Assembly: GCA_964497245.1 (NCBI GenBank)
Contig: CAZCCC010000001.1
Coordinates: 10,297-74,296 of the forward strand
Reading direction: 5' to 3'
From: an uncultured Gammaproteobacteria bacterium
Lineage (GTDB): Bacteria > Patescibacteriota > Patescibacteriia > Buchananbacterales > UBA6539
Length of the DNA: 64,000 bases
A program made the position numbers and the translations under genes. Position 1 is the first letter of the stretch. The number at the start of each line of letters is the position of its first letter. The notes beneath the pieces were generated by a model that was not told the origin of the DNA, did not search any database, and saw only the letters and a list, made by a program, of their open reading frames with translations. Positions 1 to 2,191 of this stretch are shown one piece after another.

Positions 1-237
1 CAATTTCTAGATTTCCCCCCTACCTTGGTTGTTGCAGAGGCAAAATGGAGAGAAAGGCTAGGGCAGAGAGGAAGTTAAGTTAAAAGTAATTTTCCAGGCT
101 TTACATATCTCGCAGGGGAAAGAGATTGATTGAATTAAAATCTTTTAAATCAAACTCCGCAAAAAGCAATTTCTAGATTTCCCCTCTCCCCTTGTGGGAG
201 AGGGTTAGGGAGAGGGGGTGGAGTAGAGAATAAAACC
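1..237. repeat. Two copies of a roughly 70-bp palindromic repeat unit (cover 1-80 and 160-237), same family as 621-884; copy 1 is truncated at the window start
   Basis: caatttctagatttcccc occurs at 1-18 and 168-185. Copy 2 contains the hairpin cccctctcccc-ttgtg-ggagaggg (181-204) followed by gggagagggggtggagtagag. Confidence 0.7.
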
Positions 238-253
238 ACGGCAAAATAAAATT

Positions 254-601
254 ATGAAAAAAAGATTAGTAAAAATAGCAAGAGTTTTAAGAAAGAATTC
301 AACCGATCAAGAATCAAAATTATGGTATAATATTAAAAATAAAAATTTTGCCAATTTAAAATTTCGTCGTCAATATCCTATTGGTGATTATGTTGTAGAT
401 TTTTGTTGCCCTGCCAAGAAATTAGTTTTAGAGTTAGACGGCAGTGGTCATTTATTGGCTAATCAGAGAGTAAAAGATGAAATCAGGGATAAATTTTTAG
501 TAGAGCAGGGATTTCAAGTTATTAGAATAAATAATAGTGATATTAATGGAAATTTAGACGGAGTTTTAGAAAGCATTTTTAATTTATTAGACAGAGATTA
601 A
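254..601 (+). CDS. DUF559 domain protein (Vsr/restriction-endonuclease-like fold)
   Basis: 115 aa; motifs QESKLW, RRQYPIGDYVVDFCCP and LVLELDGSGH are typical of the DUF559 family. Flanked on both sides by palindromic repeat units. Confidence 0.7.
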   Translation: MKKRLVKIARVLRKNSTDQESKLWYNIKNKNFANLKFRRQYPIGDYVVDFCCPAKKLVLELDGSGHLLANQRVKDEIRDKFLVEQGFQVIRINNSDINGNLDGVLESIFNLLDRD

Positions 602-620
602 TTTTGTAGGTTTGCTTTTA

Positions 621-884
621 CCCCTCACCCGCTAAAAAAATCAAAGTGCCCTATCACGCAAGGGGAGAGGGGTTAGAAGTAAAGTTTTTTGCAAAGCTAA
701 ATAAAAAAAATATTTTCAAATTTTCTCTCTCCCTTGGTGGGAGAGGGTAGGGGTAAGAAGGATGAAAGTAATATATGATTTTCTTTTACCTTGGCAATAA
801 ATTATAATCAAAGTTAAAATCTAATTTCCGCACAAAGCTTTATTTAAGCTTTCCCTCTCCCTTGGTGGGAGAGGGGGAGTAGAG
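621..884. repeat. Three further palindromic repeat units (621-680, 700-762, 826-884) between the DUF559 gene and the dehydrogenase gene
   Basis: Hairpins: cccctcaccc...ggggagagggg (621-672), tctctctccc-ttggtg-ggagaggg (724-746) and tccctctccc-ttggtg-ggagaggggg (852-877). Each is preceded by a gcaaagc/ccgcacaaagc motif and followed by tagggg/gagtagag. Confidence 0.75.
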
Positions 885-940
885 TAAAATAAAAAGATTC
901 ATTCCATTGATTTTTAAAGCAATAATTATATAAATAAATT

Positions 941-2191
941 ATGGAAACAAAAATTTGTGTCGTCGGTCTAGGCTATGTTGGATTGCCTCTGGCTTGCCTG
1001 CTTTCAAAAAAATACAAAGTTTATGGGTTTGATATAAGCGAAAAAAAAATAAATAATCTTAAAAACGGCTATGATGAAACAGGAGAAGTTGAAAATTTTT
1101 CTGATTTTAATTTGGAAATATCCAGCGATCCGGCAATTATAAAAAATGCAAATTTTATAATTGTTGCCGTTCCCACACCGGTAAAAGAAGATTTTACGCC
1201 TGATATCAGCTTGGTTTTAAGCGCTTCCGGCCTTGTCGGTCAAAATTTGCAATCCGGCTCAATTGTTGTTTACGAAAGCACCGTTTATCCAGGATGCACC
1301 GAAGAAGACTGCCTGTCGGTTTTGGAAAAAGAATCCCGGCTTCAATTAAATAAAGATTTTGGTTTGGGCTACTCGCCTGAGCGGGTTAATCCGGGCGACA
1401 AAACCCATACAATTGATAAAATTTTTAAAATTGTTTCAGGAAGTGACGAAAAAACCTTGGAAAATATAGCTGAAGTTTACGGTTCAATTACTCAAATTCA
1501 TAAAACAACTTCGATTAAAGTTGCTGAAGCAGCGAAAGTTATTGAAAATGTTCAGCGAGATTTGAATATCGCTTTAATGAATGAATTAGCTCTTATTTTT
1601 GAAAAAATTGGTATTGACACAAAAGAGGTGATAAAAGCCGCTTCAACTAAGTGGAATTTTGGCAAATATTATCCGGGGCTTGTTGGCGGACATTGTATCG
1701 GAGTTGATCCTTATTATCTAACTTATAAGTCAAGAAAGCTGGGGTATGAACCAAAAATAATTTTAGCCGGCCGAGAGATTAATGAGTATATGGCTGAGCA
1801 CGTCGCAAAAAAAATGATAAGCAAAAACCGGGTAATGATACTAGGATTGACTTTCAAGGAAAATATCCCTGATATTAGAAATAGCAAAGCCAATGATATT
1901 TGTAGAATACTGACTGATTGGGGTAAAGAAGTTTTCGGCTTTGATCCTTTGGTTGAAGATAAAAATTATTTAAAGAAAAATTTTTGCCAAACCATTTTGG
2001 AGAGCTGGCCGCCGAAAGAAAAATTTGGTGGTATTATTGTTTTTTCTCCACATAATGAATTCAAAGATGAAAAATATTCATTGGAAAATCTTAGAAATAT
2101 TTGTGATGAAAATCCGATCATTTTTGATATTAAAGGTTTTTACGATAAATCGGAAGCTGAAAGTCTTGGTTTCAAATATTTAACATTATAG
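941..2191 (+). CDS. Nucleotide-sugar dehydrogenase, UDP-N-acetyl-D-hexosamine (GlcNAc/ManNAc) 6-dehydrogenase type (WbpA/WecC/TviB-like)
   Basis: 416 aa; N-terminal Rossmann motif VVGLGYVGLPLA and catalytic-Cys motif GGHCIGVDP, the GGHC variant typical of UDP-HexNAc dehydrogenases rather than the GGSC of UDP-Glc dehydrogenases. Confidence 0.75.
   Translation: METKICVVGLGYVGLPLACLLSKKYKVYGFDISEKKINNLKNGYDETGEVENFSDFNLEISSDPAIIKNANFIIVAVPTPVKEDFTPDISLVLSASGLVGQNLQSGSIVVYESTVYPGCTEEDCLSVLEKESRLQLNKDFGLGYSPERVNPGDKTHTIDKIFKIVSGSDEKTLENIAEVYGSITQIHKTTSIKVAEAAKVIENVQRDLNIALMNELALIFEKIGIDTKEVIKAASTKWNFGKYYPGLVGGHCIGVDPYYLTYKSRKLGYEPKIILAGREINEYMAEHVAKKMISKNRVMILGLTFKENIPDIRNSKANDICRILTDWGKEVFGFDPLVEDKNYLKKNFCQTILESWPPKEKFGGIIVFSPHNEFKDEKYSLENLRNICDENPIIFDIKGFYDKSEAESLGFKYLTL

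Follow-up and report, generated by a model that had tools for sequence, protein, structure and literature searches.

A YcjD-type DUF559 nuclease gene between inverted BoxC-like repeats suggests a partnership of repeat and enzyme

Why does a small nuclease gene lie among GC-rich palindromic repeats in an otherwise AT-rich genome? The question is raised by the first kilobase of a 64,000-nucleotide stretch of contig CAZCCC010000001.1 (assembly GCA_964497245.1, positions 10,297 to 74,296, forward strand; hereafter the window, 31.8% GC overall), which comes from an uncultured bacterium of Patescibacteriota lineage. There, a gene for a 115-residue protein of the DUF559 family sits between two inverted repeat units, and the three together form a module of ~490 bp (182–672) in which both units direct a third arm inward, toward the gene:

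182–218, forward strand: left terminal unit, composed of CCCTCTCCC (182–190), loop CTTGT, GGGAGAGGG (196–204), spacer TTA and GGGAGAGGGGG (208–218)
254–601, forward strand: gene for a DUF559 nuclease (YcjD type, Vsr-like PD-(D/E)XK fold; 115 residues; Pfam PF04480)
621–672, forward strand: right terminal unit, inverted relative to the left, composed of CCCCTCACCC (621–630), an 18-nt spacer, CCCTATCAC (649–657), loop GCAA and GGGGAGAGGGG (662–672)

We propose, with moderate confidence, that this module represents a partnership between a dispersed repeat and its cognate nuclease, of the kind known from REPIN-RAYT systems and built on an unrelated nuclease fold.

The protein matches the Pfam DUF559 profile at E=5.4e-35 and PDB 3HRL, an 'endonuclease-like protein' of Neisseria gonorrhoeae, at E=6e-34; its match to the NCBIfam YcjD model (E=1e-25) falls under that model's equivalog cut-off. 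DUF559, a 'domain of unknown function', is a very large family that includes Escherichia coli YcjD and the solved structure 3HRL. In an alignment of 23 homologs, residues D49, E60, D62, H66 and R91 are invariant, which is the pattern expected of an active PD-(D/E)XK-type enzyme, and an N-terminal helical segment is likewise invariant at R13, T17, E20 and W24. Ratios of nonsynonymous to synonymous substitution (dN/dS) between homologs are 0.05–0.19, indicating that the protein is under purifying selection. Close protein homologs carry the label Patescibacteria. The gene, the only DUF559 gene in the window, has a host-like GC content of 27%, whereas the repeat arms remain at 58–67%, so the arms are under a constraint of their own. 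These data bear out the first-pass annotation in placing a 115-residue DUF559 gene among palindromic GC-rich repeats.

Judged by its sequence, the repeat is of the known BoxC/PIT/TM_ECO kind and not a new one. Holder et al. (2015) published the TM_ECO consensus, CCCTCNCCC-N3-6-GGGNGAGGG-N3-GGGNGAGGG, for an element identical to the BoxC of the 1990s (Bergler 1992) and the PIT of Hoyne and Maher (2000); they reported 3,610 occurrences across 262 proteobacterial genomes and 23 in E. coli K-12, always intergenic and often arranged as inverted doublets that pair two end types (PMC4666352). A regular-expression search of the window with this consensus returned one exact match, at 182–216 (+), within the left unit; the units at 621–672, 725–760 and 853–884 depart from the consensus in one arm or in the spacer. 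The unit is thus ~35–55 nt long and has three arms (pyrimidine arm, loop, purine arm, spacer, second purine arm), in place of the roughly 70-bp succession of head, spacer, hairpin and tail described in the first-pass annotation, which also missed that these units are a described triplex motif and that most copies lie far from any DUF559 gene. Both end types occur at this locus, with a short spacer in the left unit and an 18-nt spacer in the right.

Single strands of TM_ECO form a triplex in vitro, as established by circular dichroism and nuclear magnetic resonance (NMR) on E. coli sequences, and the repeats have been tied to local genomic instability (PMC4666352). The purine strand, GGG-AGA-GGG-TTA-GGG-AGA-GGG, looks like a canonical G-quadruplex; we rejected this as the primary structure, since NMR excluded the quadruplex and favored the triplex (PMC4666352). 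The G-quadruplex repeat of Xanthomonas and Nostoc is a different, heptamer tandem repeat without relevance to these units. The authors of the triplex study found no transposase, integrase or common flanking function near TM_ECO, and their paper contains no mention of DUF559 (PMC4666352). Among the literature mentioning DUF559 or ycjD, we found no paper that links the protein to repeats, and the association described here appears to be unreported in the literature searched.

This association extends far beyond one genome. We analyzed 122 YcjD-type DUF559 loci of 30–73% GC from Patescibacteria, Proteobacteria, Chloroflexi, Bacteroidota and others, scoring as a hairpin any 8-nt arm with at least seven pyrimidines and at least five C that is followed, after a loop of 3–9 nt, by its complement with at most one mismatch. 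Close homologs (full-length, profile E≤1e-26, at loci from genomes and viral contigs retrieved by protein similarity) had a hairpin within 200 bp of the gene in 40 of 42 cases, although many of the viral-contig loci are orthologous, with the same flanks, and amount to ~24 independent contexts; hairpin density was 3.27/kb near the gene and 0.24/kb farther off. In metagenomes, a set of loci (30–69% GC) that was not de-replicated in this way, at least one hairpin lay beside the gene in 80 of 80, with densities of 6.50/kb near and 0.27/kb far. The near-to-far ratio is therefore 14–24-fold. In a matched control, 91% of DUF559 3′ flanks (96/105) contain a hairpin compared to 15% (19/126) of those of other long open reading frames (ORFs) in the same loci. 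The first-pass annotation had allowed that DUF559 copies elsewhere might lack the repeats, or that the repeats might show no enrichment near such genes; neither is the case in these samples.

More distant DUF559-like domains, mostly from AT-rich phage contigs and without the N-terminal ~35 residues, have no such hairpin (0/36). The distant subfamily in AT-rich phage contigs (L050–L085) matches the profile at ~35–115 only, lacking the N-terminal helical segment. The link between the YcjD type and the repeats may depend on this segment.

The anatomy of the module is conserved along with its composition. Where at least 150 bp was available on both sides of the gene (n=99), hairpins flanked it on both sides in 78 loci, on one side in 19 and on neither in 2. 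Among units with short spacers, the third arm faces the gene in 58 versus 8 cases upstream and in 60 versus 11 downstream. The upstream hairpin ends a median of 42 nt before profile position 1, and the downstream hairpin starts a median of 17 nt past the profile end. The upstream flank aligns to the reverse complement of the downstream flank as inverted repeats of 32–118 bp (z-scores of 4–50), and whole modules measure 430–690 bp. Loops show a modest orientation bias (TTG 50, CAA 21). Some spacers contain an extra small hairpin (L018, L023 and L033; L024, L036 and L043) that differs in sequence between left and right but still pairs, as in GACCGCG..CGCGGTC versus GGCGGC..GCCGCC; the two ends are thus distinguishable, recalling the type A and type B ends of E. 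coli. Gene calls of homologs often run into the units (P0020, P0037, P0061 and P0091), and the extensions that result at the N or C terminus, for instance ...HPNPLPLGEGS..., ...PLPSGERVGVRG... and ...SPSPPSPLPQGERRV, are translated repeat arms and spurious as protein. Units of this kind therefore yield false '...PLSPxGRG...' extensions in annotated genes.

Fixed offsets from gene start and stop might instead reflect a function purely in cis, in which the inverted units control the mRNA of a nuclease that could be toxic, the dispersed copies are what remains of defunct DUF559 genes and the protein acts elsewhere. The stop codon often falls inside the right unit, as in E. coli ycjD and in homologs with C-terminal ...PSP... 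extensions, and a pyrimidine-type triplex can also form in RNA (PMC4666352). We nevertheless regard this explanation as improbable. Positions 1–1000 of the window contain no terminator-like site, the hairpins being followed by G-rich sequence instead of a T run, so an intrinsic terminator was rejected, and PIT elements have neither promoter nor terminator activity in E. coli (PMC4666352). The dispersed copies are also too well preserved and ordered for passive relics: of 440 pyrimidine/purine hairpins in 120 viral-contig loci, 84% keep the third arm, unambiguous neighboring gene-less pairs favor the inward-facing geometry (28 versus 5), and, with one exception, no DUF559 coding remnants lie beside dispersed copies at E≤1e-3.

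The 32–118-bp inverted repeats around the gene could also serve as crossover sites of an invertible segment, making expression phase-variable. In an independent screen, genes associated with inverted-repeat pairs, the predicted targets of programmed inversion, showed a 14-fold enrichment of 'DUF559 domain-containing protein' (PMC9881135). That enrichment, however, follows from the inverted repeats being present at all. No recombinase gene adjoins the module in the window or in L001 or L002, two other contigs of the same locus, and the locus is found identically in five independent ENA assemblies, all with the module in the same orientation. An inversion switch is therefore very improbable.

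Linkage between gene and repeat is one-directional: the gene nearly always occurs with repeats, whereas most repeats occur alone. The hairpin CCTCTCCC-N5-GGGAGAGG is common in viral contigs, where we found it in >120 stretches of 29–73% GC. Arm sequences differ between lineages, and copies away from the gene follow those of their own locus. In a comparison confined to local sequence around DUF559 loci, hairpins >200 bp from the gene matched the gene-flanking arms of the same locus (at most one mismatch) in 62% of cases, versus 23% for arms of other loci. REP/REPIN families behave likewise around their RAYT.

The strongest competing explanation is that a host process spreads the repeats and that a free-standing DUF559 gene of the homing type has landed in the center of a BoxC doublet. 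Several features of the data suit it. Repeats far outnumber genes, the protein has a weaker profile match to the homing endonuclease I-Bth0305I (PDB 3R3P; E=1.5e-5, residues 51–111), and gene-less inward-facing doublets share the geometry of the gene-flanking pair, as do pairs in E. coli (PMC4666352). At least one such doublet is polymorphic: the BoxC inverted doublet between hrpB and mrcB (L287:547–631) is present in K-12 and many other E. coli strains and cleanly absent from strain A24 (L288) and many others, a difference of ~100 bp without target duplication. Yet no site turned up at which one strain has the gene and another only the empty doublet. Both units of a module co-vary with the lineage of the gene and nearby gene-less units share their arms, which suggests that the repeats depend on the specificity of the gene and not the reverse. 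Long vertical retention under purifying selection would, moreover, be unusual for a homing gene that is gained and then decays. We consider homing unlikely, and both a cis-regulatory role and an inversion switch less likely than homing.

By comparison, a partnership between repeat and nuclease fits what was observed: a conserved module, linkage in one direction, arms that are specific to a lineage and recur in dispersed copies, and selection on the protein. The suggestion in the first-pass annotation that the repeats resemble REP/BIME elements has gained in substance, as RAYT-like features recur (inverted flanks, gene-less doublets and vertical inheritance), and its idea that the DUF559 protein might be their dedicated nuclease is supported by the comparison of loci, with the action on hairpins itself drawn from that comparison.

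A number of observations weigh against this partnership. A PD-(D/E)XK nuclease forms no covalent intermediate and so cannot transpose DNA alone. When the co-localization proposed earlier was followed from repeat to gene, a direction in which it did not hold up as it had from gene to repeat (97 of 99 loci), just 1 of 80 viral-contig hairpin loci had a DUF559 gene within the retrieved stretch, most copies being far away; this rules out strict linkage and leaves room for RAYT-like action in trans. In one 13-member lineage, the module is fixed at a single locus (nucleotide identity 70–84% in the gene and 82–92% in the flanks), and residence at one locus over a dS of ~1 indicates vertical inheritance, not recent movement. 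Neither 24 module boundaries nor the E. coli filled/empty site showed target-site duplications. Plasmids seldom carry YcjD-type genes (34 of 72,556 records), which led us to reject them as vehicles. In E. coli, the units occupy conserved loci and look inactive now, and the triplex has not been detected in vivo (PMC4666352). The relation between ycjD and unit number in that species is loose and confounded by phylogroup, making it suggestive only: B2 strains such as ST131 have no ycjD, and ST11 (O157:H7) reportedly has eefRABCD where ycjD would otherwise lie (PMC12817139), while TM_ECO copies number 1–3 in B2 strains such as ST131 and ATCC 25922 and 14 in O157:H7. Similar modules do occur in unrelated contexts (L011/L013/L014, L008/L015, L006/L008 and L010/L029).

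Model organisms carry the same arrangement in various states. In E. coli K-12, a degenerate hairpin spans the stop codon of ycjD, and ~170 bp downstream of the gene lies TM_ECO number 9. A near-duplicate of ~45 nt of the 3′ coding end of ycjD is found between the stop codon and TM_ECO number 9 (L206, ~1800–1870, minus strand), pointing to an ancient rearrangement or to another copy since deleted. Of 5,426 complete E. coli genomes, 3,378 contain ycjD. TM_ECO copies range from 1 to 32 per genome (median 18). The gene occupies the fabI–sapF site in phylogroups A, B1 and C, with eefRABCD there in other groups (PMC12817139); this alternation with an operon makes the site unsuitable as a clean filled/empty comparison. 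A Klebsiella DUF559 copy is flanked by such units. In N. gonorrhoeae, NGO0050 (the protein of PDB 3HRL) is flanked by three-armed units; they belong to direct, not inverted, copies of a ~100-bp element (L290, ~800–915 and 1430–1530), each copy ending in the unit CCCTCTCCC-TGT-GGGAGAGAG-CTA-GAGAGAGGG.

The window contains further traces of the repeat around the module:

1–80, forward strand: decayed unit of the left-end type, with head CAATTTCTAGATTT and degenerate arms CCCCCCTACC...GCAGAGG...GGAGAGAAAGG...GGGCAGAGAGG
156–181, forward strand: local 'head' before the left unit, TCCGCAAAAAGCAATTTCTAGATTT
725–760, forward strand: gene-less unit, composed of CTCTCTCCC, loop TTGGT, GGGAGAGGG, spacer TA and degenerate third arm GGGGTAAGAAG
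853–884, forward strand: gene-less unit, composed of CCCTCTCCC, loop TTGGT, GGGAGAGGG and degenerate third arm GGAGTAGAG

Perfect hairpins of the form CTCTCCC-N5-GGGAGAG lie at 184–202, 727–745 and 855–873, and an imperfect copy lies at 649–672, with an extra C-rich arm at 621–630. Five perfect or near-perfect copies had been announced; the tally is three perfect hairpins, one imperfect hairpin and one relic (1–80), and the TTGGT loop noted earlier is that of 727–745 and 855–873. Folding with ViennaRNA, which models hairpins only, agreed with this tally. The expectation that the units fold was borne out for 621–672 (z=-2.2), 725–760 (z=-2.0) and 853–884 (z=-4.7, with 0 of 200 shuffles folding equally well) and failed for 1–80 (z=+0.77). 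A small A/T hairpin (AAAGCTT-TATTT-AAGCTTT, 834–852) lies directly 5′ of 853–884, and the two jointly make the most stable fold of the region. The right terminal unit is 88% complementary to 181–204, its CCCTATCAC arm having two mismatches. Every unit lies outside the ORFs at 254–601 and 941–2191 and is thus intergenic.

The left side of the locus has undergone a tandem duplication of ~166 bp upstream of the gene, in which positions 1–100 correspond to 167–266 and comprise the head CAATTTCTAGATTT and a unit (1–29 is 86% identical to 167–195, offset by 166 nt). Of the two copies, the distal one is decayed, and farther left, at L001:1170–1235, there is a third in a still more decayed state. Sequences like the head at 156–181 recur at 690–724 and 826–852, with 69–78% identity among the three copies; this 'gcaaagc' head is conserved only locally, and we saw no counterpart in other loci or taxa. 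As had been surmised, the array extends leftward: L001 has a further unit at 1075–1127, ~140–190 nt before window position 1, with the long-spacer design of the right unit at 621–672.

Could such palindromes be an accident of composition or an assembly error? Position 1 of the window falls within a unit, and several contigs terminate at units, so assemblies have evidently been disturbed here. The same sequence is nevertheless recovered in the five independent assemblies, a pattern search of the remaining 63 kb found no such hairpin and only scattered half-motifs, and the arrangement recurs in ~120 loci over 30–73% GC. We therefore consider chance or artifact excluded. The contrast of the hairpins with an AT-rich genome, pointed out in the first-pass annotation, is real: units have 54–67% GC (66.7% in the left unit), and outside positions 1–1000 just 0.08% of 40-nt windows reach at least 65% GC. 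The first-pass annotation had also suggested looking at contig breaks, and several independent contigs of the locus do end or start at units. Contigs L002 (end 3006) and L004 (end 1086) stop 3–20 nt past the equivalent of the 727–745 hairpin, L005 starts just before that at 184–202, and window position 1 itself falls inside a unit; many DUF559 homologs occur solely on contigs of 0.5–1.5 kb. The repeats seem to break metagenome assemblies.

Genes for a glycosyltransferase and a UDP-glucose dehydrogenase neighbor the module in the window, L001 and L002. Searches against Rfam gave only chance-level matches, both for positions 1–1000 by E value and for the whole window at the gathering threshold, which indicates no known RNA family, and PADLOC defense-system models produced weak partial matches only. 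The 64-kb window contains no tRNA genes. Its GC skew is zero or positive in each 1-kb bin, never negative, which probably places the entire window within a single replichore.

How might the putative partnership operate? We infer that the DUF559 protein binds and cleaves the repeats and may have a role in their spread. As a small PD-(D/E)XK nuclease, it would probably bind as a dimer, and its recognition target could be either the interrupted pyrimidine/purine palindrome or a single-strand hairpin or triplex of the repeat. The enzyme would nick or cut at a repeat, and the repeats would be copied, deleted or rearranged as the host recombines or repairs the site. Because a Vsr-like hydrolase is incapable of strand transfer, spread and turnover would have to follow a homing-like route, through nicks or breaks and host recombination. 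Lone units and inverted doublets without a gene would then be non-autonomous derivatives on which the enzyme acts in trans.

More tentatively, YcjD-type DUF559 proteins could be the cognate enzymes of BoxC/PIT/TM repeats across bacteria and form a second, independent REPIN-RAYT-like system, with an enzyme that may recognize folded DNA. These repeats have been catalogued for ~30 years with their origin, spread and function unexplained, and the DUF559 nuclease is the best candidate so far for their missing partner enzyme. The near-universal link from gene to repeat provides a testable hypothesis for both. If the hypothesis is right, REPIN-RAYT-like partnerships have arisen two or more times, from catalytic folds that are not related; triplex-forming DNA in nature gains a protein partner of its own; the module of gene and inverted repeats, at 430–690 bp, is one of the smallest self-contained DNA elements known, whether selfish or domesticated; and recognition of a folded hairpin or triplex would also explain the instability reported at the repeats.

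Several known systems share parts of this architecture. A CRISPR array was ruled out here, as in the first-pass annotation, by the irregular spacing between hairpins (543 and 128 nt), the presence of both orientations, the palindromic units and the lack of an adjacent cas-like ORF. Vsr mismatch-repair endonucleases share a fold superfamily with DUF559, and some sources name such proteins 'very-short-patch-repair endonuclease'; the Pfam matches of this protein are DUF559, MTES_1575 and DUF2726, with Vsr (PF03852) not among them, and no cytosine methyltransferase gene lies beside the DUF559 gene in the window ORFs or the locus contigs, so we rejected this identity. Insertion sequences and miniature inverted-repeat transposable elements also place terminal inverted repeats around one small gene, and the gene-less doublets resemble internally deleted copies. 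We rejected this class for want of a DDE, HUH or serine/tyrosine transposase and of a target-site duplication, and insertion sequences start at ~700 bp, above the size of the module. The homing endonuclease I-Bth0305I has a related catalytic core and sets a precedent for a selfish, recombination-dependent lifestyle within the fold. It is encoded within a group I intron of a phage, and its DNA-binding region is separate, whereas the DUF559 gene, weakly related to this class and without an intron context, is free-standing between inverted repeats and has a conserved N-terminal helical segment of ~35 residues.

The closest comparisons are with BoxC and with the REPIN-RAYT systems. Like BoxC/PIT/TM_ECO, the repeats described here have a C-rich arm, a loop of 3–6 nt, a G-rich arm, a 3-nt spacer and a second G-rich arm, lie between genes, alone or in inverted pairs that combine two types of end, and are associated with local instability. 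BoxC repeats were described as orphans of Proteobacteria and Cyanobacteria with no partner gene or mobility function, whereas here they occur in an AT-rich Patescibacteria-like genome, and units or arm variants bracket DUF559 in essentially every lineage examined. As in REP/REPIN-RAYT systems, short GC-rich palindromic repeats are scattered singly and in inverted pairs, a single-copy nuclease gene lies between inverted repeats of its own type (in most loci, with the arms shared by dispersed copies), the gene is inherited vertically under purifying selection and repeat families are genome-specific. Unlike RAYTs, which are HUH/Y1 enzymes related to the TnpA of IS200/IS605 and form covalent DNA intermediates, DUF559 is a Vsr-like PD-(D/E)XK hydrolase; a Pfam search of the protein returned no transposase domain and the array contains no other ORF, so we do not assign the locus to the REPIN-RAYT family itself. 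The units here also differ in having a third arm with triplex potential and in the recurrence of similar arms across phyla, features that set this candidate partnership apart from the REPIN-RAYT systems whose organization it otherwise parallels.

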